A DNA stretch of 64,000 nucleotides from Candidatus Zhuqueibacterota bacterium (lineage in GTDB: Bacteria > Zhuqueibacterota > Zhuqueibacteria > Thermofontimicrobiales > Thermofontimicrobiaceae), in NCBI GenBank assembly GCA_049322915.1, contig JBMOPW010000014.1, positions 701,527 to 765,526 on the forward strand, read 5' to 3'. Every line of letters starts with the position of its first letter. The first letter of the stretch is position 1. Below the pieces are notes generated by a model. The model searched no databases, was not told the DNA's origin, and was given only the letters and a program-made list of their open reading frames with translations. Below are positions 1 to 12,587 of the stretch, one piece after another. The position numbers and the translations under genes are program-made.

Positions 1-45
1 ACACGGATTAAAATTTTGGCGCCTGTATTATTATTGGACATACGC

Positions 46-73
46 GTAGAGGACGGTCGCGACCGTCCACTAC
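46..73. repeat. REP-like palindrome (GTAG...CTAC type)
   Basis: gtagaggacggtcgcgaccgtccactac is a near-perfect inverted repeat. Confidence 0.7.
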
Positions 74-187
74 AGATAAAAAAAGTATAGAATTTATTGC
101 ACATGCCTTCACCTCGTCATTCATATTCATAGTGAAAATCAGAATTAATTGCCATTATTACAATACATTCTATAAAAAAAATATATA

Positions 188-384
188 GAAGCCGTTGAAA
201 CGGCTTCGGACATGTTTCATTCATGCAGTAAACACCTTGATGCATTGCCCAGTCTTCCATATTTTTTAAGGAGACAATACTGGGAATCATGGTGTTGATT
301 CAAAGGGGAGTTGAACTAACACCACAATTTATTGTGGTGTGTCAACAGAGGTGGGGACAACCAATGAACTGCTTCAGCAGTTTC
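188..384. repeat. Multi-hairpin REP-like element (relatives at 11097-11159 and inside 12307-12514)
   Basis: Hairpins aagccgttgaaacggctt, caccacaatttattgtggtg and aactgcttcagcagtt; a similar series recurs at 12327-12483 and partly at 11097-11159. Confidence 0.6.
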
Positions 385-717
385 AATTTTCACGATGCTT
401 ATACAATATAGTAACTTTTCGGAATCACATCCCTCTCTGTTCAATTCGTTAGCTCATTGCTCGTTTATTTTGTAGCCACGTAGCAAGGTTCGAATTGAGT
501 CATCGTTAGAAATTCTTAATTGTGCGGATGTATCTGAAGGAGTCTGGAGCTGTGGAAACATGGCTGGTTATTACGGGAACAGTGGCTGTCCGAAAAAAAC
601 ATCACGTTTTAAAGAAAAATGAGGAAAAGAAAATATTTAATCTCTGCAATATAATTGCCACCCTTATTTGCTGTCTGTTAATTTATCTTTAAAATAGTTA
701 AGATGTTGCAATAAACA

Positions 718-746
718 TTGACTTTTACAGAAAATATGGTTATTTT
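718..746 (+). promoter_or_regulatory. Putative sigma70-type promoter for the 853 gene
   Basis: ttgact-N17-tatttt. Confidence 0.35.
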
Positions 747-852
747 CGGCCATTCATTTCGTTCGGGATCCAGTGCAAAGTAAAAAAAATCATGTGTTAG
801 AGCCACAATAATTAATTCAGGTGCGGTTTAATTAGCAATAGGGATATGAAAG

Positions 853-1203
853 ATGAAAGAGACAAGTGAAAGTTTTCCGAGGAATACCTTGAGACAGGCT
901 GAATTAGCATTAGAAGGCTGGAAAGAACTGTACGAACGGCTCAATGTACCCAACCTATCGCTCGATGATTTTGCCGAGAAAATATCATTCGCAACCGATA
1001 AGGTGGACCTTGCTGAAAGGTTGAAGGAAGAAAGAAGCAAGGCGGTCCAGGTCCGAAACGATAGTCTTAAGGAAGTGTGGGATTTGACCAAAAGAATTCG
1101 CAATGCTGCCAAAGCGACGTTTGGAGATAATTCAAACGAAATTGAAAAATTTGGGGGCAAATCGTCCCGTCAACGCAACAAGGGCGAGAGGGATTTTGAC
1201 TGA
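853..1203 (+). CDS. Hypothetical all-helical protein (116 aa)
   Basis: Charged helical ORF with a C-terminal FGDNSNEIEKFGG motif; flanked by a promoter-like site and a terminator. Confidence 0.75.
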   Translation: MKETSESFPRNTLRQAELALEGWKELYERLNVPNLSLDDFAEKISFATDKVDLAERLKEERSKAVQVRNDSLKEVWDLTKRIRNAAKATFGDNSNEIEKFGGKSSRQRNKGERDFD

Positions 1204-1329
1204 TCGCCGGTTATGTGTTCCATCAGATGTGGATTATTCATGAAATAGAATGTATTCCATGTGCTGCTCATTGCATCCCCTGAATAGCCAACCGAAGGAT
1301 TTTGAATTTTAAATATGCGACAGATCGGG

Positions 1330-1360
1330 AAAAAGCTCAAATTCAATATTTGAGCTTTTT
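1330..1360. terminator. Intrinsic (probably bidirectional) terminator
   Basis: aaaaagctcaaat-tcaat-atttgagcttttt. Confidence 0.65.
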
Positions 1361-1485
1361 ACTAATTGAACAACCACGGTTTTCATGTTCCGAAAATTGA
1401 GGGATCATTGTGCTGACAATTATTCAGGCATATCTACTTGTCTCGAAGTTACAAAAAGGGCTCTATTCTAAATTGTGTGGGTAAT

Positions 1486-1540
1486 TGTAAATTTCAAGTG
1501 AAAAGTGTACCATTGTATTAATTGAAAAGTATACCAGTGG
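1486..1540. mobile_element. IS21-like terminal sequence remnant, no transposase
   Basis: Starts with TGT and has an internal repeat tgaaaagtgtacca / tgaaaagtatacca, as in IS21-family ends. Confidence 0.4.
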
Positions 1541-2128
1541 ATTAACAATGTGCCCAATACTCACTGTATTGGATACGGCCCCTGTCCGAAGGAAACGGGA
1601 TGGCAAATGTCGGAATGAAGCAGCGAACGGTTATTAATATCCTTTCATAATTAAGAAAAATAAGTATCTAACTGAATGTAAAACAAAGATAAAAAAAAAT
1701 ATTAACTGTAATACGATGAAAATATGAGTTCTATCACATACTATTTATACCAGTATCATTAACTTTCAAACGAATAAAACATTGCGATATAATGTCGGAT
1801 GCCAGAGTGTAACGCTATTAAAATTAACGCATTAAAATTTATTAAGAATACGTCACAAGGATTGATTTTTAATTTAAAACTTATATATTGTAATCTGATG
1901 TTTGAGTAATAAAAGCATTTTGCGGTTGATGAAGACGTGCGTGAGTCTATCATTATTTGGCCTGAACAAGGCCAATGCCAAACGATCCTGTGCTCACACT
2001 TCAACTAACGAGCTCACCTGATTTTATTGACGTTTACAAACGACGTTGCTGATTAAAAAAAATGAATCATCCATTCAGGATGTCATGAAACGCCGGCGGA
2101 GTTTCGGTATGTTCTATCCGCTGATGGT

Positions 2129-2233
2129 TAACCTTACTACGTCACATAGATTTATTATCGTTATATGCTGTTTTTTGGATAGATGATAAATTCAGCATAT
2201 TGTGATAAATTTGCTAAATGACATTGTAGGGTT
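2129..2233. mobile_element. About 106-bp MITE, copy 1 (others at 10771-10876 and 50157-50469)
   Basis: TIRs taaccttactacgtca / tgacattgtagggtt; the interior matches the reverse complement of 10771-10876. Confidence 0.75.
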
Positions 2234-2271
2234 CATTGAAATGATGACATGAAAGTCAACATTATTACTTT

Positions 2272-2434
2272 CCTAGCGCGCTAAATCGCAAGTGAAACGT
2301 CAGACGAGAGAAGTGAGATGTAAAACATTATTCGTTTGACATTTCACTTCTCACGTTTCACTATGTGTTAGAAGGGATTCCTGTGTTATATTAAAATATT
2401 TTGCACAAAAATGCAAAAGTTATGTTGTAATACT
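2272..2434 (+). mobile_element. Asymmetric-ended element carrying inverted 7-mer tracts
   Basis: Left end cctagcgcgctaaatcgcaa and right end aaaatattttgcacaaaaatgcaaaagttatgttgtaatact match the ends of 49878-50073. Confidence 0.55.
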
Positions 2435-2435
2435 T

Positions 2436-2908
2436 TAGGTAGCTTGAAGTGGATTGGCTATGTGATGCCAGCGGTATATTCGACACTCGGCAGTTCCAAT
2501 GGAAAGCGTCTGGATATTATGACAAGAATCCATAGAGTAATCGGCTCAGAGTTCAGAATATGAGCACCAGCCATTGTTATAATAATGAGTCTATTGTTTC
2601 ATCTTACATGGGCTCAATTCCTAAAGCAGACGAGGCTTCATGTTAAAAGGCTTGTAATAAAGTCCGTCAATGGCTGAAGAAATTCTGGCAGTAACAATAT
2701 GTTTAGAGAAACACTGCGATGCTTAAAGCCATCGCACCACGAATTGTGAGCTAAATTTCTCAGATTCAACCTGGGAATTTAGGTGGTGTTTAAAATTCGA
2801 AGCTGCTTCTGTGGAATTCGCTGCAATTCCAGAGGAGTCGCAATAGCCCCGTGTCAGTTTTGGTTCGTGTGACTGACGGGGCGGAGCTATGCCCGGGAAC
2901 AAAATAGA
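2436..2908 (+). promoter_or_regulatory. Long structured 5' leader of upxY with ops/JUMPStart-like motifs
   Basis: At least 8 stems found by eye; ggtagc at 2438, gccagcggta at 2467 and ggggcggagctatg at 2878. Confidence 0.55.
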
Positions 2909-3445
2909 ATGAGTCATGAATATTCCAAATCGATCTTTGGCGAGTTAAACGTTGAGCCGAATTGGTATGCCGTTACGACAAAACCGAGGCATGAAAAAAA
3001 AGTATTCCAATTACTCACAATAAAAGGAATAGAAAGCTATCTGCCATTACAAAAACTATCGCGAAAATGGAGCGACCGCTATAAAGTAATCGAACAGCCC
3101 TTATTCAGTTGCTATGTTTTTGTACGAATCGCCTTGAAAGACAGGCTTCCGGTTTTACAGACAGATGGGGTGGTGAAGCTGGTGACATTTAACAACATTC
3201 CGGCGACCATTCCTGATTCGCAAATTCAGGCTGTGAGACTCGTACTGGAAAAATGTCACACGATCGAGCACATTGATTTTCTCACCCCTGGCCAGAGAAT
3301 TGAGGTCGTTCAAGGGCCGCTCAAGGGGATCTCAGGATTGTGCGTCGAAATTAAAAACAGCCACCGACTTGTGGTCCGATTGGAAAGCATACAGCAAGCG
3401 ATCTCCGTGGATATTGATCTGAGGGACATTAAAATTCTGGAATGA
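2909..3445 (+). CDS. upxY: UpxY/RfaH-family transcription antiterminator (NusG paralogue)
   Basis: NGN domain (WYAVTTKPRHEKKV...PLFSCYVFV) plus KOW motif (GQRIEVVQGPLKG); heads a polysaccharide locus. Confidence 0.92.
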   Translation: MSHEYSKSIFGELNVEPNWYAVTTKPRHEKKVFQLLTIKGIESYLPLQKLSRKWSDRYKVIEQPLFSCYVFVRIALKDRLPVLQTDGVVKLVTFNNIPATIPDSQIQAVRLVLEKCHTIEHIDFLTPGQRIEVVQGPLKGISGLCVEIKNSHRLVVRLESIQQAISVDIDLRDIKILE

Positions 3446-3446
3446 G

Positions 3447-3600
3447 AAATGCCAGATAGCAGAAATCAGATACCAGATAACTGATACCGGATGCCAGATA
3501 ACAGATGCCAGATAACAGATAACAGATACCAGATACCAGATAACAGATACCGGATGCCAGATAACGGATACCGGATGCCAGATAACGGATACCGGATGTC
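3447..3600. repeat. Degenerate 7-nt tandem repeat (ccagata/acagata/ccggatg) with a 21-nt super-period
   Basis: Visible directly; starts immediately after the upxY stop. Confidence 0.9.
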
Positions 3601-3678
3601 TCATGTGCCTTTGATTTGAGGAAGATGAATATCACGAATCTTAAATAAGGAGTTTGAGATTTATTATAAACTCACCTA

Positions 3679-3856
3679 ACCTGGACAAGCCAAAACCAAA
3701 AAAGAAATGGAACGCTGATTACGCGGATGATCCTCCTAAAAGCTTGGCGGACGTTCCGCGCTGATCTTCACGGATTCTTAATCAGTATTAATCTGTGTTA
3801 TCAGTGTCCCATAAAATTTTCTGCCAAAAAATGCAAGAATATTATTTGTAAGTTAT
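3679..3856 (+). mobile_element. Asymmetric-ended element carrying inverted 9-mer tracts, inserted in the ACTCACCTAA site
   Basis: Left end acctggacaagcc; right end aaaattttctgccaaaaaatgcaagaatattatttgtaag; splits ctcacctaa / aatcctctcttgaaaa. Confidence 0.55.
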
Positions 3857-3984
3857 TAAATCCTCTCTTGAAAATGGAGGACTTAAAAATGAGTCTGCGG
3901 TAAGAAGCCTGCACAGGTATTGATGGGATGGTTCGACTATTTTTCCACGCCATGAATGACGTGGCTATTCATTTAAATATATTA

Positions 3985-4054
3985 GCCCTTTTGAATAGCC
4001 CCGACTTTTAAGTCGGGGATCAGAGAAATCCATTAAATTTTGGGCTTTAGCCCC
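3985..4054 (-). repeat. REP-like CCCCGACTT..AAGTCGGGG element (other copies near 5860, 9879, 45376, 47891, 48142)
   Basis: Palindrome with conserved flanks ggggctgaagcccaaaa and ctattcaa; this copy is inverted relative to the 9879, 45376, 47891 and 48142 copies. Confidence 0.8.
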
Positions 4055-4141
4055 ATAGGGAGTAGTTCTAAAATCGAGACAAAAGAGGCAGTCAGAAATT
4101 TAAAGCAATACCACATATTTTATTTTTTCATTAATAAGACA

Positions 4142-4369
4142 AAATTGGTGTTGAGATTTTTTATAAACTCACCTAACCTGAATTATTCATGAACTTGCTC
4201 AGAATTTGAGTCAACATTTAGATTTTCAATTAGCTAAAAGCTGAGCTATTTTAAAACTCAGTTTTTGTACGTTTATACTTAAAAGAGCACCATTCAGGTT
4301 AGCCAGCCTCCTTTCAAAATACTATGAATAATGCAGGCTGAATCCTCTCTTGAAAAGAGAGGACTAAAA
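4142..4369 (+). repeat. About 228-bp direct repeat, copy 1; contains a 161-bp IS1380-like MITE (4177-4337)
   Basis: Near-identical to 9554-9781; MITE TIRs cctgaattattcat / atgaataatgcagg. Confidence 0.9.
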
Positions 4370-4603
4370 ACGAAATCTGGTGACCAATCTATTGGTAATT
4401 TTATTTTCCACCAAGAACGAAAATCAATTTTCAACATGGAAATTCGAACTACCAAAATCGAACTAGGAGCATCGAATCACCAATAACCAAATCACATACA
4501 CCAACGACCAATTCACCAAATATTACTTGCTTTTTAATACGGTTGTAGTTATGTTCCGTGAAACGATTCTAATAATAACGATCCTGAAACATAATAATAA
4601 TGT

Positions 4604-5305
4604 GTGCTTATGCTTAAAACTCCGAAAATTACAGCGCCGAAATCATTGAGTTCTCTTGCTACTGCATGCCTGAAAGCCTTGCAAGATTCAGGGTTTGGGA
4701 AGTATATTACTTTAGGGAGAGCAGTTGGATTAGCACATTATTATGATTACAGAACGACAAAGGATGTTGATGCATGGTGGACAGTTGACGCCACAGAAAA
4801 GATTAAGAGTCAAGTTATTAATTTACTAAAAACAACGCTGGAAGATTTTGGTGAAATTTCAGTCAGAAGGTTTGGCGACGTGATAAGCGTAGATGTGAAA
4901 GAAAATAAACAGGTAATATTTAATTTTCAGATTGCATCGCGTAGCGCCTTGTTGAAATCACCTGTGGAAAGTCCGTGGCATCCAATTCAACTGGATTCGA
5001 TTGATGATTTGATTGCCAGCAAGATGACGGCTCTCATCGAGAGAGGCGCGCCAAGAGATTTCCTTGATATTTATGAATCATGCAAGCAAAAACTGGTTAC
5101 AGTTCAAGATTGTTGGGAGCTCTGGCAAAAACGAGAGCGATTGAGGGGGATTGAAAATATGGATGTAAAAATCGGCTGCGAAGCGTTGTTGTTGCATTTG
5201 AAACGAATTGAGAAAATCAGACCACTCGAGAGTATCGAAAATTTGGAGCAACGAGAAAACGCTGAAACAGTGAGAAAGTGGTTTAAGAATGAATTCTGCA
5301 AATGA
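4604..5305 (+). CDS. AbiEii/AbiGii-family nucleotidyltransferase (toxin-like)
   Basis: LGRAVGL...YRTTKDVD and SKMTALIERGAPRDFLDIY motifs. Confidence 0.85.
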   Translation: MLMLKTPKITAPKSLSSLATACLKALQDSGFGKYITLGRAVGLAHYYDYRTTKDVDAWWTVDATEKIKSQVINLLKTTLEDFGEISVRRFGDVISVDVKENKQVIFNFQIASRSALLKSPVESPWHPIQLDSIDDLIASKMTALIERGAPRDFLDIYESCKQKLVTVQDCWELWQKRERLRGIENMDVKIGCEALLLHLKRIEKIRPLESIENLEQRENAETVRKWFKNEFCK

Positions 5306-5612
5306 TAATTCGATCTGGATTGACGGAAGTCTTTTTCCTGATTGCGAAGCGCCAGGAGCATTGACCACGTTGAATGAACGCATTGATTTTATTTCCCGAT
5401 TATGCAGCGCGTGGGATTTCGGTGTATTGCCGCTTCCGGAAACATTGGCAGAAGTCCGGAAAAGCGAATGGATGGAAGCGGTTGAAGAAACCAATCTGTT
5501 AACTTCATGCGCATATCATTTGCTCAGGGATTTTCATGGTTTAGAACCACTGCCATATTTAGGCCCTAAACCTAATGACATTTTGAATGATCCGTGTTTA
5601 GAGTTTATTTAA
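5289..5612 (+). CDS. Small acidic hypothetical protein, probable partner of the upstream nucleotidyltransferase
   Basis: 107-aa ORF overlapping the upstream stop by 17 nt. Confidence 0.7.
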   Translation: MNSANDNSIWIDGSLFPDCEAPGALTTLNERIDFISRLCSAWDFGVLPLPETLAEVRKSEWMEAVEETNLLTSCAYHLLRDFHGLEPLPYLGPKPNDILNDPCLEFI

Positions 5613-6009
5613 TTGGGCCGATTCTGATAAGCTACGACTAGTAAGTCGTATAAGAAAAATCATAATAGGTTAATCTAAAATAAGCAGTCAGCCTGCAGCT
5701 ATCAGCACTCAGCAAAAGAAATATAAGTACATTGATTGCATGTATGAAATCACCCAAAAGGCGAAAAAGTTTATCAAGCTAAGCTGATGACTGAAAGCTG
5801 ACAGTTCTAAATCCGCCATTTTTTAGGCGGGCTAATCGCTCAATTCAGGTGTAAATATTCCCGACTTTAAAATCGAGGGAAAAATTACTGTTCGCCATTC
5901 ACCAATAACAAATTCATCAATTTAACACTCACCTATACATAAAAATGGTGAACATGTTTACTACCAATATTTCGCCATTATGTGGATTTGAAAATCGTCA
6001 ATCACCAAC

Positions 6010-6086
6010 AAATCCCGTAGGGATGGGATATGGGTAGAAAAAAGTAATCCCCCTGAAAGATAAAACCCCGTCAGGGGTGACATATT
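6010..6086 (+). repeat. REP doublet (atcccgtagggat...accccgtcaggggtgaca), copy 1
   Basis: Recurs at 7931-8004 and, inverted, at 36147-36217. Confidence 0.85.
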
Positions 6087-6308
6087 CTTTAAAACATAAC
6101 GCGCTGAAGCGCACGTGAAACGTAAGACGTGAGACGACTTTTCAGCCCATGATAAAAATGCGAACATCCCGAAACCCGATTCCCGAATCACCAACTCATA
6201 CGGAACTTTTTCAGTAAAATACAATATAAAAGATACAACGAAAAATTATGTAATAACCCGATTAAATGATAAGTCTGGTTTTAAATATATCGCTTAAATA
6301 TTAAAACA

Positions 6309-7568
6309 ATGCATATTCAACGACAAATTTTGCTTAAAATTTTGTCTCATTTGTCTGCCAAAGAAATGACGTTGATCACCGGCGCGCGCCAGGTGGGTAA
6401 AACAACGGTGATGAAGGAAGTCAAAGATATTTTAGATAAACAGGGCAATCAAACACTGTTTTTCAATCTCGACTTTGAAACCGATTTCAGCTATGTCGAA
6501 TCCCAGGGTAAATTCTTGCAAAAAGTTAAATTGGAATTCGGTGACAAGCCGGGATTTATTTTCATCGACGAAATCCAGCGAAAAGAAAATAGCGGCTTGT
6601 TTCTAAAAGGATTATTCGACAGGAATCTGCCTTACAGATTTATCGTGTCCGGGTCCGGCAGCATGGAATTAAAAGAAAAAATTCATGAATCCCTCACCGG
6701 CAGAAAACGAACGTTCGAATTATCGACCATTTCTTTCCGGGAATTTGTCAATTTCAGAACTGACTATCGCTACGAAAACAATCTCAATGATTTTTTTGAT
6801 GTGGAAAAAGAGCGAACAGAACTCCTTCTGAACGAATATTTGGCGTGCGGCGGCTACCCGCGTCTTGTTGTTGAATCCACAAAACAGGAAAAGAGCCAAT
6901 TAATCAATGAAATTTACACCAGCTACTTAAAACGAGACGTGGCCTATCTGCTGAATATTGATCGTCCTGAATTATTTACCCGGCTGATTCAATTACTCGC
7001 CCATGCCACAGGATCAATCCTGAATTACAGCACGTTAGCGTCCGATGTTGGCGTTTCCGTTCCAACATTAAAAAAATACTTCTGGTATGCAGAGAACACA
7101 TTCATTATAAAAATCATCACTCCATATTTTAAAAATAAACGCAAGGAAATTAAAAAATCGCCCGTCGTGTATTTTAACGACCTTGGCTTGAGAAATTTTG
7201 CCCTGAATCAATTTGGCAAAGAACATCTAATCGAGGGCGCCGGGCTGCTCTTCCAGAATTTTGTGTTTAATATCATTCAGGAATTAAATCAATACGCGTT
7301 TGCAGAAATCAATTTTTGGCGAACAACGGATCAGGCAGAGGTCGATTTTATCATTCATTCAGGCGATGAAATTGTTCCGGTCGAAACAAAATGTTCCCGC
7401 CTGAAAAATGACCGAGTAAGCCGATCGTTCAGGAATTTCATTGAGGCCTATGAACCCAAAAATGCATATATTGTCAATTTAGACTATACATCAGAAATGA
7501 AAATTAACAACACCACTGTAAAATTTTTACCCTACTATAAATTATACCAGGAAAAAATACTAGAGTGA
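6309..7568 (+). CDS. AAA+ ATPase with DUF4143-type/PD-(D/E)xK-like C-terminus
   Basis: Walker A GARQVGKT, Walker B FIDEIQ, SGSGS, GGYP, C-terminal EVDFI...PVETK. Confidence 0.9.
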   Translation: MHIQRQILLKILSHLSAKEMTLITGARQVGKTTVMKEVKDILDKQGNQTLFFNLDFETDFSYVESQGKFLQKVKLEFGDKPGFIFIDEIQRKENSGLFLKGLFDRNLPYRFIVSGSGSMELKEKIHESLTGRKRTFELSTISFREFVNFRTDYRYENNLNDFFDVEKERTELLLNEYLACGGYPRLVVESTKQEKSQLINEIYTSYLKRDVAYLLNIDRPELFTRLIQLLAHATGSILNYSTLASDVGVSVPTLKKYFWYAENTFIIKIITPYFKNKRKEIKKSPVVYFNDLGLRNFALNQFGKEHLIEGAGLLFQNFVFNIIQELNQYAFAEINFWRTTDQAEVDFIIHSGDEIVPVETKCSRLKNDRVSRSFRNFIEAYEPKNAYIVNLDYTSEMKINNTTVKFLPYYKLYQEKILE

Positions 7569-7774
7569 AAGAGTCGATTTAGTCATAACCTCACCTAACC
7601 TGGATGAACCAGAAATTCCAAAACACAAAAATCAAATCTTCATAAGGCAGAGCCTTTAAATAAATTGATCCGCCGAAGGAGGATAACAAATAAAATCCAA
7701 ACTTTAAAAAGACAAATTCAAAACAATATTATTTTAATATCTTCACTGGATCTATTTCAGCCTGTGGTAAAAAT

Positions 7775-8390
7775 TCGAAAATCCCGAATCCCGAACATCG
7801 AATTACTAATCACCAACATCAAATATCCAATATCTAAAATCTAATATCCAACATCGAATATCGAAAATGAAAAATCGAATCACCATAACCAATCACCAGT
7901 TTACCAATACCCAGTCACCAATTCACCACCAAATCCCGTAGGGATGGGATATGGGTAGAAAAATTAGCCTCTGGATGAGAAAACCCCGTCAGGGGTGACA
8001 TATTATTTAAAACACAAATTCCAAAATTACAGGTCACCAAATATCAAAAATTGCAGGATGGAACAGGGTTTGAAATTTATTATAAACTCACCCTAAAAAC
8101 GAAATACAAAAAACAATCTAACGGTAATTTTTCATTTCAGTAGTTTTTCTCATCCAACATCCAATAACAAGTATCGAACATCCAGTATCTAATATCCAAA
8201 ATCGAAAATCCCGAAACCCGAACACCAAATCACGAATCACAAATATCCAATTTCTAATATCTAATAACGAAACACTAATAACCAATCACCAATCAACAAT
8301 TCACAAATTCACCAATCACCAACATCCAACATCCAATATCGAATATCCAAAATCGAAAATCCCGAATCACCAATATCGAGTAACGAACAT
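7775..8390. repeat. Degenerate C/A-rich 7-nt tandem tracts with an embedded REP doublet (7931-8004)
   Basis: Iterations of tccaata/tctaata/accaatc/ccgaaac at 7775-7930 and 8150-8390. Confidence 0.8.
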
Positions 8391-8497
8391 TAAAAATAAA
8401 TCTTGATTGTTAAAATATATTTGATAAATTATTATTGAATTTACAAGATGTAATGATATGTTTTCCCGGTTCATTTAAATATTGTGGTGTAAAATTA

Positions 8498-8788
8498 ATG
8501 TCTGAAAAAAATAGCGTAAATAATGACCAATTAAAGGAGTTCATCAATCGGCACAGTTTGCTTTGGTGGTGGGTGCCTGATGAGAAGAAAGAAAATTTAA
8601 GTTTGAAATCGGTAGTCGAAGCAATTCTGAATTATGGAAGTCTGTCAGACATTAAAGAATTATTCGAACTTGTTGGTTTAAAGACAGTTGCTGACGTTTT
8701 TTATGAGGCAACCAATAACCGCCAGCGTTCCAATTATTCTCCTGAAATTGAAAACTTTTTTAAACTGTACTTTGAACGTCATGCATGA
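8498..8788 (+). CDS. Putative antitoxin (DUF6922-like)
   Basis: LWWW...VVEAILNYGSLSDIKELFELVG motif; overlaps the downstream nucleotidyltransferase start; ATG 8498 preferred to TTG 8435. Confidence 0.7.
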   Translation: MSEKNSVNNDQLKEFINRHSLLWWWVPDEKKENLSLKSVVEAILNYGSLSDIKELFELVGLKTVADVFYEATNNRQRSNYSPEIENFFKLYFERHA

Positions 8789-9398
8789 AGAAATTTTGAC
8801 AAACAGGCAAGTAGAATTGATTCCATTAATTCGTCTCTTCAATCGGTCTTTTTACCTGGTTGGCGGCACCGCAATCGCACTTTATCTTGGACACAGACAC
8901 TCAATCGATTTCGATTTATTTAATCCCAAAACATTGAATAGAAAGAATATTTATAATAAGATTATCGAAAACAATTTTCATATCGATAATACGCTGGTAG
9001 CGACGAATGAAGAATATACCTTAATTACCAACAGGGTAAAGATAACGTTTTATAATTTTCCCTTTGACATTCCGCATAAAATTAAATTTAAAAATATTAT
9101 AAGTATGCCGACATTACTGGACCTGGCTGCCATGAAAGCATACGCGCTGGGAAGAAGAGCGAAATGGAAAGACTATGTGGATCTTTATTTTATTCTACAG
9201 TATCATTACTCCCTGAATGAACTCTGCAAAAGAGCAGCAGAATTATTCGGTGATCTTTTTAGCGAAAAGTTGTTTCGGGCGCAATTATCATTTTTTGCTG
9301 ATATAGATTATTCAGAACCGGTGAGCTATGTTTCAGATTCAATTGATGAAAACGAAATCAAAGAGTTTTTAAAAGAAATAACAACCCGACCGTTGTAA
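8781..9398 (+). CDS. AbiEii/AbiGii-family nucleotidyltransferase toxin
   Basis: FYLVGGTAIALYLGHRHSIDFDLF and MKAYALGRRAKWKDYVDLY. Confidence 0.9.
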   Translation: MHEEILTNRQVELIPLIRLFNRSFYLVGGTAIALYLGHRHSIDFDLFNPKTLNRKNIYNKIIENNFHIDNTLVATNEEYTLITNRVKITFYNFPFDIPHKIKFKNIISMPTLLDLAAMKAYALGRRAKWKDYVDLYFILQYHYSLNELCKRAAELFGDLFSEKLFRAQLSFFADIDYSEPVSYVSDSIDENEIKEFLKEITTRPL

Positions 9399-9553
9399 AT
9401 TTCTCCAAACGTTCTGGAAATCTTTCCTGAATGCTGAAGCCAAATATACTGAAAATACCAAAGATCAACAGCCAGAAATCAAACAAGCCACAAAATCCAA
9501 CAATGAATCACCTTTAATCCTTGTTTTCCTAACGATAAAAAAATTGTAGGATT

Positions 9554-9781
9554 AAATTGGTGTTGGGATTTTTTATAAACTCACCTAATCTGAATTATTC
9601 ATGAACTTGCTCAGAATTTGAGTCAACATTCAGATTTTCAATTAGCTAAAAGCTGAGCTATTTTAAAACTCAGTTTTTGTACGTTTATTCTAAAAAGAGC
9701 ACCATTCAGGTTAGCCAGCCTCCTTTAAAAATACTATGAATAATGCAGGCTGAATCCTCTCTTGAAAAGAGAGGACTTAAA
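9554..9781 (+). repeat. About 228-bp direct repeat, copy 2 (MITE at 9589-9749); continues to about 9865 as a match to 3858-3970
   Basis: Visual alignment with 4142-4369 and 3858-3970. Confidence 0.9.
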
Positions 9782-10015
9782 AATGGGTCTGCGCTAAAAT
9801 GCCGGCAAAGGCATTGATGGGATGGTTCGGATATTTTTCCACGCCATGAATGACGTGGCAATTCAAATGAGCTATTCTCCCCCGACTTAAAAGTCGGGGC
9901 TATTCAAAGGGAAAAGAAATCAAACCCAATGTATCAACGCCTTTTAAGGCTTTTTGAGTCGACCCATAATAAAATAGAGGCATTTAACAACCCAAAAATC
10001 CAGTCTTCATTCCAG

Positions 10016-10335
10016 TTCAAACAATCTTACATTCGAGAAAAATCGCCTCTCCTCTGAGAAATACAATTTTACATCCGAGAAATACAATCTTACAACCAGG
10101 AAATACAATCTTACATCCGAGAAATGCAATCTTACATTTGGGAAATACAATCTTACATCTGAGAAATGCAATCTTACATCCAGGAAATACGATTTTACAT
10201 CCGAGAAATGCAATCTTACATCCGAGAAATACAATTTTACATCTGAGAAATGCAATCTTACATCCAGGAAATGCAATTTTACATCTGAGAAATGCAATCT
10301 TACATCCGGGAAATGCAATGGTGCAACAAAGAAAT
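10016..10335. repeat. 21-bp tandem array, consensus GAAATRCAATYTTACATCYRR
   Basis: 12 conserved units at 10058-10309 plus degenerate flanking units. Confidence 0.95.
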
Positions 10336-10449
10336 GGCGACTTGTGAATGGTGAATTTTGAATGGTGAATGCTTATGTGGGAAGCGTGAATTTTAAAAGG
10401 GGCGGCCAGATGGAGACATCGCTTTTATGTGATTGGTGGACAGTATCTA

Positions 10450-10617
10450 AGTATACCATTTCATAAATTTTTGGAGGGTTCATCCGTCATGCCCGTCCCG
10501 AAGCATCGGGATTAGCGGGCATTCACTGGATTCCCGCCAAAAACACGCGGGAATGACGATCAATGAAAACTCATTCTCACCATTGAAACCCTAAATAGAT
10601 TTGTGAAACGCTGTACT
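10450..10617. mobile_element. MITE with an internal GATTCCCGC...GCGGGAATGAC palindrome
   Basis: Imperfect TIRs agtataccatttcataaat / atttgtgaaacgctgtact; CTAAG at both junctions. Confidence 0.55.
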
Positions 10618-10770
10618 AAGTCGAAATCCCAGAAAATACAAAAAACAATTAACCCTTTGTTGAGCGAATAGCATTCAGCTTTCAGCACTTATTAAAAAAA
10701 AATAGAAACAGTTACAGGGTTTACCGCATTTGCTGACAGGGTAATTCCATCGCTGATCTTCACGGATTCT

Positions 10771-10876
10771 TAACCCTACAACGTCATTTAGTAAATTTAT
10801 CAAAATATGTTGAGTTTTTCATCTATCAAAAATACAATATACAACGATAAAAAATCTATGTGACGTAGTAGGGTTA
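10771..10876. mobile_element. 106-bp MITE, copy 2
   Basis: TIRs taaccctacaacgtca / tgacgtagtagggtta. Confidence 0.8.
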
Positions 10877-11290
10877 ATTCATAAAGGCACCGAAGGACGC
10901 AGGTAAACCTGAAAAGATAAAAATTCAATAATCAACTAACACGCCAATCACAAAACCAAATTCCCAAAAATTTAACCCGGACAGGGATGTTCGGTTCTTC
11001 ATTCTAGAAAAAAGTCTGTAAATTTAAGATTTGTATTTGGAATTTGTTGAGTACCAGCCGCAGACAGGTGCGTTCTTTGGCGCATCTACCATTATCACCA
11101 TGCTGAAGCGTGGTGTTCAAAAATAATCCAGCCAGCTAACCAGCCGCTTCAGCGGCTTCTGGAATATATGAGTTGATTCGTTATCATTTTTTCTCAATAA
11201 AATTGTGAATAAAATTTTCGGTTTGGGGGAGTTAGACTATAAAACCACTATAACTCTCGTATCATTCAGGTTAAAGAAAAGGAGCCTGCC

Positions 11291-11935
11291 ATGACAAAAC
11301 GTGAAATGAACAAACTCATGATGTACAAATCCGTGAACGGATTGCTGAAAGAAAAGACGAGTATCACCACAACGGTTCCGGCGTTTGCGACTGTGGCGCA
11401 GCAGTTTCAGGCAGCGATCGATGCGATTGAAACCAAACATAAGGAACACAAGAGCGTGGCCAAAGGGCGGGCGCAGCAGAAGGGGGCGAATGAGGATGAA
11501 TTGGTGGACAGCCTGGTGACTGTCTGTTCCATTTTATACGTTTTAGCGGTGCAAACGGGCGATAAAGCGCTGCAGGAAGCGGTGCGGGTGAATGAATCCA
11601 TGCTGAAAAGGCTGCGGGATGTTGATCTGCTGAACCGCGCGAACACGATTTACAGTTACGCCAATAACAAAGCGGCGGAACTGGCGAATTATGGCCTGGA
11701 TGCGGCTTCTCTGACATCTCTGGGTGAAAAAATAAAAACATTTGGCGGCGCTCTGGAAAATACCGAAGTTGGGGCCGCAGAAAAGACAGCCGCCCGCCAT
11801 ACATTGAGCGAAGGGATAGACCATGCGGATCATGTGTTATATGATATGCTGGATCCACTGATGGAAATTTTCCGATCATCCCAGGTGGAGTTTTACAATC
11901 AATATATGAGCGCGCGAGTGATTAAGGATTTGTGA
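11291..11935 (+). CDS. Hypothetical all-helical protein (214 aa)
   Basis: Strong RBS aaggag; N-terminal NKLMMY...VPAF and C-terminal FYNQYMSARVIKDL resemble a widespread uncharacterised family (from recall). Confidence 0.85.
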   Translation: MTKREMNKLMMYKSVNGLLKEKTSITTTVPAFATVAQQFQAAIDAIETKHKEHKSVAKGRAQQKGANEDELVDSLVTVCSILYVLAVQTGDKALQEAVRVNESMLKRLRDVDLLNRANTIYSYANNKAAELANYGLDAASLTSLGEKIKTFGGALENTEVGAAEKTAARHTLSEGIDHADHVLYDMLDPLMEIFRSSQVEFYNQYMSARVIKDL

Positions 11936-12306
11936 GACCCTCTCATGGGGAATGCCATGCCGTCGCCGGGTGAAAAACGTGAGAAGTTGGAAGTCTGATA
12001 CCTGATAACAGATAGCAGATATCTGATGACGGATACTTAATGACAGAGTGGTTTTCGGATGCGCTACGCTGCCATGTCTGCGAATGTTTTTGATGCGCCC
12101 TGGCGTGCAGGCATCTCTTCACAGTCGCATGGGGGATCCCCGCATTCTCGGGAATGACATCATGTGTAAAAAATCCTAAAAACAATCTGTTCCGAGAGTA
12201 GTAAATATGTAGGTTACGTCGGGTATTCGATGCTTGCTATTTGAGTATTGGCGCCTGCATTTCTTCTTTTTTTATAATAAGTTGCATCGTACATCCACTA
12301 TTTTAT

Positions 12307-12514
12307 GTCTGTCCGAAAAATACAGGAAACCGTTAAAATGGTTTTAAAAAAACGATTTGGATTGCAAGGACACCGCGTTAAAACGTGGTGCTCGTTCAAT
12401 ATCTTATTTTAAATCAGCACCTCCAATTTATTGGGGTGTGGATGCAAATTGGATACTATTTCAATAACCATTTCAATGGTTTTCAATCATATAACTAACC
12501 ATTTTCGGACAGAC
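12307..12514. mobile_element. MITE carrying a multi-hairpin REP-like cargo
   Basis: 13-bp perfect TIR gtctgtccgaaaa / ttttcggacagac. Confidence 0.7.
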
Positions 12515-12587
12515 TCAATTTAGAAGCTCATATCGAACAAAGAGAATTGAGCACCTAATTATAATTTTTTAGCAACTAAAGGATAAA

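Follow-up and report, generated by a model that had tools for sequence, protein, structure and literature searches.

The window analysed here is a stretch of 64,000 nucleotides (nt) from a Candidatus Zhuqueibacterota genome (GenBank assembly GCA_049322915.1, contig JBMOPW010000014.1), and near its 5' end lies the leader of a long polysaccharide locus. The leader (2436-2908) runs up to upxY (2909-3445, + strand), which encodes a 178-residue specialised paralogue of NusG. The product matches the Pfam NusG family (PF02357, E 8.1e-19) and belongs to the UpxY family (NCBIfam NF033644, 143 bits versus a cut-off of 100), while it stays below the cut-offs of the RfaH model (81 versus 144.5 bits), the LoaP model (60.6 versus 125) and the NusG model. 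It is the sole such gene in the genome besides NusG proper. Co-directional genes for polysaccharide biosynthesis and export at 12588-55738 are the presumed target of anti-termination. A first-pass annotation had taken the entire leader for a multi-domain structured RNA of about 470 nt that works in cis with the NusG paralogue. Our analysis points instead to a site of about 50-55 nt at 2846-2897 as the conserved functional part of the leader, built on the plan of the opsX elements of Bacteroides fragilis and predicted to be a loading signal for UpxY, a reading to which we assign a probability of roughly 0.78 on sequence grounds.

The element joins a hairpin to an ops-like sequence on the + strand. 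The putative nascent-RNA pause hairpin spans 2846-2882, as judged from the minimum-free-energy (MFE) fold and covariation, with GCCCC (2846-2850) and GTCAG (2853-2857) as its 5' arm and CTGAC (2873-2877) and GGGGC (2878-2882) as its 3' arm. Its 3' side carries a conserved box, TGnGACTGAC (2868-2877), which, with polymerase paused at 2890, would lie in the duplex behind it, at about -23 to -14. The ops-like element GGCGGAGCT-ATG (2880-2891) includes a GCG-N-AGC core (2881-2887) and is followed by CCCGGG (2892-2897), which is partly conserved (yCCrG) in the alignment of instances. The last base of the motif is 2897, and the first of upxY, which has the same orientation, is 2909. The consensus of 37 non-identical instances from the class is nTGnGACTGAC-NN-GGCGGAGCT-nTr-yCyrG. 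In these 37, T2868, G2869, A2872, C2873, T2874, A2876, G2880, G2881, C2882, G2884, G2886, C2887, T2888 and T2890 are invariant, C2877 is conserved in at least 90%, and the base after T2890 is G in 24, A in 11 and C in 2.

The sequence 5' of the box varies, yet it is complementary to GACTGAC-NN-GGC, and the base of the 3' arm is paired with upstream sequence in the MFE fold of 35 of the 37 instances. Cognate 5' arms pair better than swapped ones (mean -10.8 versus -9.0 kcal/mol), and none of 10,000 permutations was as good. By a cruder measure, an exact Watson-Crick complement of NNGGC lies upstream in 11/37 instances, compared with 19/555 non-cognate 5-mers. In the window itself, 2843-2895 folds with a z score of -2.1. 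MAFFT left the 5' arms unaligned; the covariance model was seeded with five instances that share one spacing and with a 5-bp stem specified by hand, Infernal was then used for realignment, and the inner stem (GTCAG/CTGAC and variants), which shifts register among instances, was excluded from it. Over 38 instances, 89.8% of the cells of the 5-bp basal stem are paired, versus 77.8% in shuffled and 26-62% in slid alignments, and double-sided changes number 22 versus 7.7 in shuffles, with 0/500 shuffles as good by either measure, although these statistics are inflated to an unquantified degree, the instances being kin and the alignment being fitted to the structure in the model. The two variable positions of the 3' arm are paired in several ways (AU 15, CG 8, GC 5, UA 1 and UG 1 for the first; UA 13, UG 7, CG 3 and GC 3 for the second), and 13 U-G cells in the stem pair on the sense strand only.

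A stem maintained by compensatory changes speaks for selection on structure at the level of RNA or of a single strand, and the hairpin might itself be the ligand, with UpxY reading the nascent RNA stem-loop. LoaP, which acts on antibiotic operons of Bacillus velezensis, offers a parallel in that a small hairpin in the 5' leader is paired with a specialised NusG paralogue, and it is reported to bind its leader RNA hairpin (as cited in Saba et al. 2024, PMC11685472), with reading by the KOW domain proposed. For the element in the window we regard this reading as unlikely. The 3' arm is nearly invariant while the 5' arm is free to vary, a pattern that better fits read-out of a DNA strand or duplex, and together with the ops-like single strand it points to DNA. 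Furthermore, recognition in B. fragilis depends on upstream DNA and the NGN domain of UpxY, not on hairpin RNA or the KOW domain (PMC11685472).

We prefer to read the element as a DNA-recognised site of the opsX kind, and the comparison with B. fragilis extends to its layout. Each capsule operon leader of that species carries one pause site, opsX, of about 40 bp, which consists of a NusA-enhanced nascent-RNA pause hairpin and a hairpin in the non-template DNA (5'-YGCGNAGCR); in vivo, hairpin region and ops part are jointly necessary and sufficient (PMC11685472). The NGN domain reads upstream duplex DNA, with effects or footprints at -16 to -18, -21 to -24 and -31 to -34, and in opsA, opsB and opsE (class 1) CCCGA or CCCGG directly follows the pause step. 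According to Table S1 of that paper, opsE reads hairpin-GCGAAGC-AT/A-CCCGG and opsB GCGAAGC-GC/A-CCCGA, with the pause (/) two bases after AGC (from the oligonucleotide marked 'reconstitute -3'); the corresponding order in the window would be hairpin-GCGGAGC-TAT/G-CCCGG. As in class-1 opsX, the site stands in a polysaccharide operon leader just before a co-directional upxY, and its hairpin directly precedes GCG-N-AGC, a pyrimidine/purine step and CCCGR within a total of about 40-55 bp. That the characterised recruitment elements are short, as the first-pass annotation had stated, agrees with this source, and the conserved element described here is of the same size.

When its downstream CCCGR and pyrimidine/purine step are matched to those of opsB and opsE, the putative pause falls at T2890/G2891, give or take 1 nt. 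A pause at T2890 would place G2881 at -10, the hairpin end at -9 (about -9 to -14 in opsX), the invariant ACT at -19 to -17 and the invariant TG at -23/-22, so that ACT and TG would lie near the contact zones of B. fragilis UpxY. The putative pause also shows the G(-10), Y(-1), R(+1) pattern. In this it resembles hairpin-stabilised (type-1) pauses such as those of the his and trp leaders, in which about 9-12 nt separate the end of the hairpin from a pyrimidine/purine step and position -10 is G. Pauses of that kind are used for attenuation, which depends on translating a leader peptide, whereas no conserved leader peptide accompanies the element.

Translation nevertheless had to be weighed, since in 24 of the 37 instances GGAG has ATG, GTG or TTG after it, and the motif could be a ribosome-binding site plus start codon (GGAG..nTG) that opens either a leader peptide or an N-terminally extended UpxY, or else an operator or promoter acting at the DNA level. 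The frame opened by the triplet reaches at least 129 codons in seven instances (four of them ATG, one GTG). However, 13 instances have no start codon at this position (GTA, ATA, ATC or TTA), and in 27 the frames have only 1-27 codons, all of different lengths. The GGAG-2 nt-ATG spacing is moreover too short for a ribosome site, and a leader peptide or start codon at nTG was rejected on this survey of frames in 37 instances. An operator or promoter would have no need of a covarying stem, and the orientation of the element is fixed relative to the downstream genes. We give these explanations, taken together, scarcely any credence.

Association with UpxY genes adds to the case for the predicted loading signal. 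Of the 18 UpxY orthologues in the order, 13 have the motif in the 900 nt upstream, and the rest of these leaders has no common sequence. The strict pattern ACTRAMNNGGCGGAGCT gave 46 matches in 34 of 125 genomes of the class, compared with 5 for a reversed control, and the covariance model (R2) gave 79 matches in 52 of the 125, with 1-4 per genome. Of these 79, 34 lie at most 600 nt upstream of a co-directional UpxY-family gene, and 15 of the 34 are outside the R2 training set (by a list compiled by hand, whose count agrees); five more precede a UpxY gene by about 2.6 kb, and four are 2.4-4.4 kb downstream of one on the same strand. The remaining matches are on other contigs, where the examined ones precede polysaccharide genes: the genes after copies without upxY encode a Bac_transf protein with an oxidoreductase and an acetyltransferase, GT2 with DegT, an epimerase, an NTP_transferase and an inositol monophosphatase. 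A UpxY above the cut-off was found in 31/34 genomes with the strict motif and in 52/91 others, as tallied by reading both lists. These tallies include the unpublished genome G117 (one motif match) and, in the UpxY counts, G121; omission of the two shifts each count by at most 1-2.

Within the window the model matches once, at 2844-2903 (51.3 bits). The host genome holds one other clear R2 match, near 33.7 kb of contig C39 (39.7 bits), 18 nt before a gene for a 475-residue Bac_transf protein and with no upxY nearby. Among the ops- or JUMPStart-like words that had been flagged at 2438, 2467 and 2878, only the last thus falls within a conserved element, and the other two are unsupported. The broader proposal, that the leader contains a cis-acting element and that this works together with the NusG paralogue, is very probably right as judged from sequence, and both of its parts, the stem at 2843-2890 and the word at 2878, had already been picked out.

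Several observations weigh against the reading as an opsX-type loading signal. UpxY is commoner than the motif (83/125 versus 52/125 genomes), so the pairing is not one to one, and 5 of the 18 orthologous loci in the order have no motif nearby. The GCG-N-AGC core is one base further from CCCGG in the window than in B. fragilis, and its flanks are G..T where the B. fragilis consensus YGCGNAGCR has Y..R. The kinship of the instances and the fitted alignment belong here too, and the leader body upstream of the hairpin may still have a function. Among 20 upstream regions examined, two variant sites turned up, which depart from the motif at one or two positions. In several families upxY follows another gene, and any site must therefore lie elsewhere.

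In loci of three families of the class (L208-L222; f7, f9 and f12), upxY is not the first gene, usually has no motif directly upstream, and follows an open reading frame (ORF) that ends in a tyrosine-rich tail of the kind found in BY-kinases.

Outside the class, named genomes scanned for the exact pattern yielded at least 120 matching stretches, of which 80 were scored with R2. Among the matches listed, the scores split cleanly, with 29/80 at 25 bits or more and 51/80 below 21 bits; the latter, mostly from high-G+C genomes, were taken as chance matches. The 29 listed high scorers include Bacteroidales, Rikenellaceae, Prolixibacteraceae, Cytophagia, Salinivenus, Ignavibacteria/Melioribacteraceae, Calditrichia and KSB1, as well as three Acidobacteriota, one member of the PVC group and one of the Deferribacteres by record label. 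NusG paralogues follow six of the 29, and the other downstream genes encode SLBB/Wza-like, Wzz, RmlA-like, flippase and hexapeptide proteins, three integrase-like proteins, one Pvc16_N protein and a few unrelated ones. To judge by motif stretches identical in named and unnamed loci, the relatives of the window seem to fall in the Calditrichota/KSB1 portion of this group.

The three matches outside the FCB group that carry Terriglobia, Acidoferrales and Acidobacteria labels (L093, L115 and L118) score 31-39 bits; in L093 a NusG-domain ORF opens directly after the motif (distance 0, the true start codon not being established). In four loci from Bacteroidales, Rikenellaceae and Ignavibacterium (L085, L086, L141 and L149), the motif stands before one Pvc16_N gene of a contractile injection system and three integrase-like genes. 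These four suggest that UpxY-type control reaches beyond polysaccharide loci.

The remainder of the leader, the 408 nt at 2438-2845, presents a different picture. The pairings on which the large-RNA proposal was built are present in the sequence: tgccag (2466-2471) with ctggca (2685-2690), and cagccattg (2568-2576) with caatggctg (2668-2676), the latter a perfect 9-nt inverted repeat, of which about 0.4 would be expected by chance in 470 nt by simple arithmetic. The stems near 2715-2736, 2806-2837 and 2843-2890 likewise appear in the MFE fold and are inverted repeats. If the whole of 2436-2908 were one large structured RNA acting in cis with UpxY, its overall stability would be in keeping (z -2.16, with 1/100 shuffles as stable), as would the advantage of the + strand over the opposite strand (z -1.48), which G-U pairs favour. 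The stability is unevenly spread, however. The 5' domain that holds both long-range pairings (2438-2700) reaches only z -0.73, with 46/200 shuffles as stable, whereas 2700-2842, with three local hairpins (about 2715-2736, 2735-2788 and 2806-2837) that are real inverted repeats, reaches z -3.5 on the + strand (0/200 shuffles as stable) and -2.2 on the - strand.

Conservation tells against the large RNA, the orthologous leaders showing none over 2438-2845. Among 60 relatives, no DNA match falls in 2447-2867; all matches to 2270-2908 lie within 2270-2446, save three short ones to 2868-2904, each directly 5' of the UpxY orthologue of its genome. Two orthologous loci, one of the same genus (L030, with UpxY 83% identical) and a second (L031, 77%), share with the window, downstream of 1896, only 2868-2943. 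Since 2447-2867 has no homologues, the covariation expected of a large RNA cannot be scored there, and the covariation check that the first-pass annotation had advised comes out in favour of the hairpin at 2846-2882. The advised Rfam scan yielded no match at gathering score over the whole window, and of 11 matches in 1-4700 at E up to 10, none lies inside 2438-2908.

It remains that the 143 nt 5' of the ops hairpin are unusually structured (z of -2 or lower) in 8/36 loci, with a mean z of -1.0, and that the two closest orthologues are among the eight (z -4.0 and -3.75). The leaders of these two are about 150 nt long by a guess at the promoter and are filled with TCGA-rich heptad repeats; these account for the low z values, and there is no architecture in common with the window. 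In both, the ATCGAAC-like heptads occupy about 40-150 nt upstream of upxY, just before the ops hairpin. We consider the large RNA very improbable and treat the leader body as a spacer with local hairpins of lineage-specific use. It is single-copy: 2438-2908 occurs once in its own genome, and matches of the leader body elsewhere are at most 24 nt, the level of chance. A miniature inverted-repeat transposable element or other repeated mobile element was rejected for 2438-2845 on this ground, the repeats at 2128-2233 and 2270-2437 lying upstream of the putative RNA. A simple scan for intrinsic terminators on the + strand of 2438-2908 found none. A look-up of RNA runs that contain 2000-3600 returned none. 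In contigs from four DNA runs, one run covers 2309-3575 identically, and a 336-nt contig of another spans 2789-3124 with five differences; neither bears on the ends of the transcript.

Taken together, the element can be fitted into a provisional scheme in which the UpxY-family protein is loaded onto a paused polymerase. RNA polymerase would start near 2435 and transcribe a non-conserved spacer of about 400 nt, after which the hairpin at 2846-2882 would form in the nascent RNA and polymerase would pause a few bases past it, at about T2890. In the paused complex, the non-template strand would display GGCGGAGCT, with a GCG-N-AGC mini-hairpin, and the duplex behind the bubble would carry TGnGACTGAC. 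The NusG paralogue encoded 18 nt downstream may recognise both features, bind polymerase and sustain its elongation across the inserted genes and repeats (about 9 kb) and then across the 43-kb polysaccharide cluster. The same UpxY probably also acts in trans at the second genomic site, ahead of another sugar-transferase operon.

Several features set this arrangement apart from opsX as it is described for B. fragilis in PMC11685472. The start codon lies about 19 nt after the putative pause here and 41-42 nt after it there; a single sequence stays nearly constant from phylum to phylum, whereas B. fragilis has eight sites that differ and thereby give specificity; and the second site of the host genome serves an operon without upxY. 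Unlike the UpxY-UpxZ system of Bacteroides, moreover, the host genome, which is 96% complete, encodes one UpxY, and a search for UpxZ (PF06603) found none there but did detect the control in B. thetaiotaomicron; 3' of upxY there is a heptad repeat array and no upxZ gene.

In its use the element would resemble the ops sites of RfaH, where one factor also serves several operons in trans. The site sequence in the window, GGCGGAGCTATG, shares the GGCGG..AGC letters with the RfaH ops (GGCGGTAGCGTG) of enterobacterial JUMPStart leaders, which likewise precede long envelope or polysaccharide operons. Identity with ops/JUMPStart (Rfam RF01707) was rejected: the site is not the 12-nt GGCGGTAGCGTG, and the Rfam scans, whether run at gathering score or with E up to 10, gave no match to it. 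Its loop is one base shorter (GCGGAGC versus GCGGTAGC), and it retains an upstream hairpin and an upstream box, whereas the ops pause lacks a hairpin (PMC11685472). By analogy, then, the element is probably an opsX-kind site outside Bacteroides with RfaH-like use, nearly invariant across FCB-group phyla and some Acidobacteriota.

In the literature searched, in which few subscription journals are covered, neither this consensus nor any opsX-like site from a species other than B. fragilis is described. On UpxY, antitermination and opsX it yielded only Saba et al. 2024, the preprint of that paper and general work on NusG paralogues; the two words of the motif co-occur there only in unrelated papers, and the supplement text of PMC11685472 has no occurrence of them. 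We tentatively propose, at somewhat less than even odds, that TGnGACTGAC-NN-GGCGGAGCT-nTR with its covarying hairpin is an ancestral and nearly universal UpxY loading signal for small RfaH-like regulons, of which opsX is a later elaboration. If so, it would be common to Calditrichota/KSB1-type bacteria, Ignavibacteria, Rhodothermia, Cytophagia, Bacteroidales and some Acidobacteriota, in regulons of 1-4 sites per genome that comprise polysaccharide loci and perhaps integrase-linked and contractile-injection loci, and the operon-specific opsX sites of gut Bacteroides would have arisen late. The unsupported idea of a giant leader RNA gives way to a precise, testable element of 55 nt, and a mechanism described in 2024 for one gut species would extend to phyla in which nothing is known of the control of transcription elongation. 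A single near-invariant consensus would provide a simple predictor of UpxY-type targets in uncultured bacteria, as well as a baseline for how Bacteroides diversified its sites to distinguish eight paralogues.

Ahead of the leader lie two repeats. A 168-nt element at 2270-2437 (+ strand) contains an imperfect palindrome (2291-2362, with 35-nt arms) and a promoter-like 3' end, where TTTG (2400-2403) is followed after 17 nt by TATGTTGT at 2421-2428. TTTG-17 nt-TATGTTGT would correspond to the -33/-7 promoter consensus of Bacteroidetes. The element has four copies in the genome, the other three at 91, 89 and 71% identity, and the likeness among the copies ends at about 2437. Because the repeat ends there in Bacteroidetes-type promoter-like sequence, a start near 2436 is plausible, and the start near 2435 predicted from the promoter-like sequence fits a portable promoter. 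Pieces of the element occur in 17 of the 60 relatives, with up to nine matches in one genome. The other copies in the host precede unrelated small ORFs without informative Pfam matches, one being DUF2283, and the element looks like a portable promoter or operator cassette. Further upstream, outside the leader, 2128-2233 is a high-copy short repeat, about 100 nt long and present some 30 times or more in the genome. About 28 short matches to 2200-2237 are spread over the genome, and in metagenome run X1 the contig depth across 2108-2215 reaches 30-47 times the value in the flanks.

Downstream of upxY, about 9 kb (3446-12587), all co-directional with the operon, separate it from the first sugar gene. 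This interval contains two genes for AbiEii-type nucleotidyltransferases (4604-5305 and 8688-9398, + strand) and one for an AAA/DUF4143 ATPase (6309-7568, + strand), which look like defence or toxin-antitoxin cargo inserted within the anti-terminated transcription unit. The polysaccharide cluster beyond it encodes a GDP-mannose dehydratase, epimerases, a DegT aminotransferase, glycosyltransferases, a flippase, NeuB, Bac_transf and Wzi. Tandem repeat arrays with a period of 7 nt occupy the non-coding gaps at 3449-3598, 7813-8362 and 10056-10319: CCAGATA is repeated about 21 times directly after upxY, CCAATAT and CACCAAT follow further on, and a 21/42-nt array lies at 10 kb. The region upstream of upxY (1-2908) holds hardly any long ORFs, with none of 120 residues or more and no Rfam match in 1-2900; two short stretches within it, 1691-1740 and 1833-1896, are conserved in a relative of the same genus.

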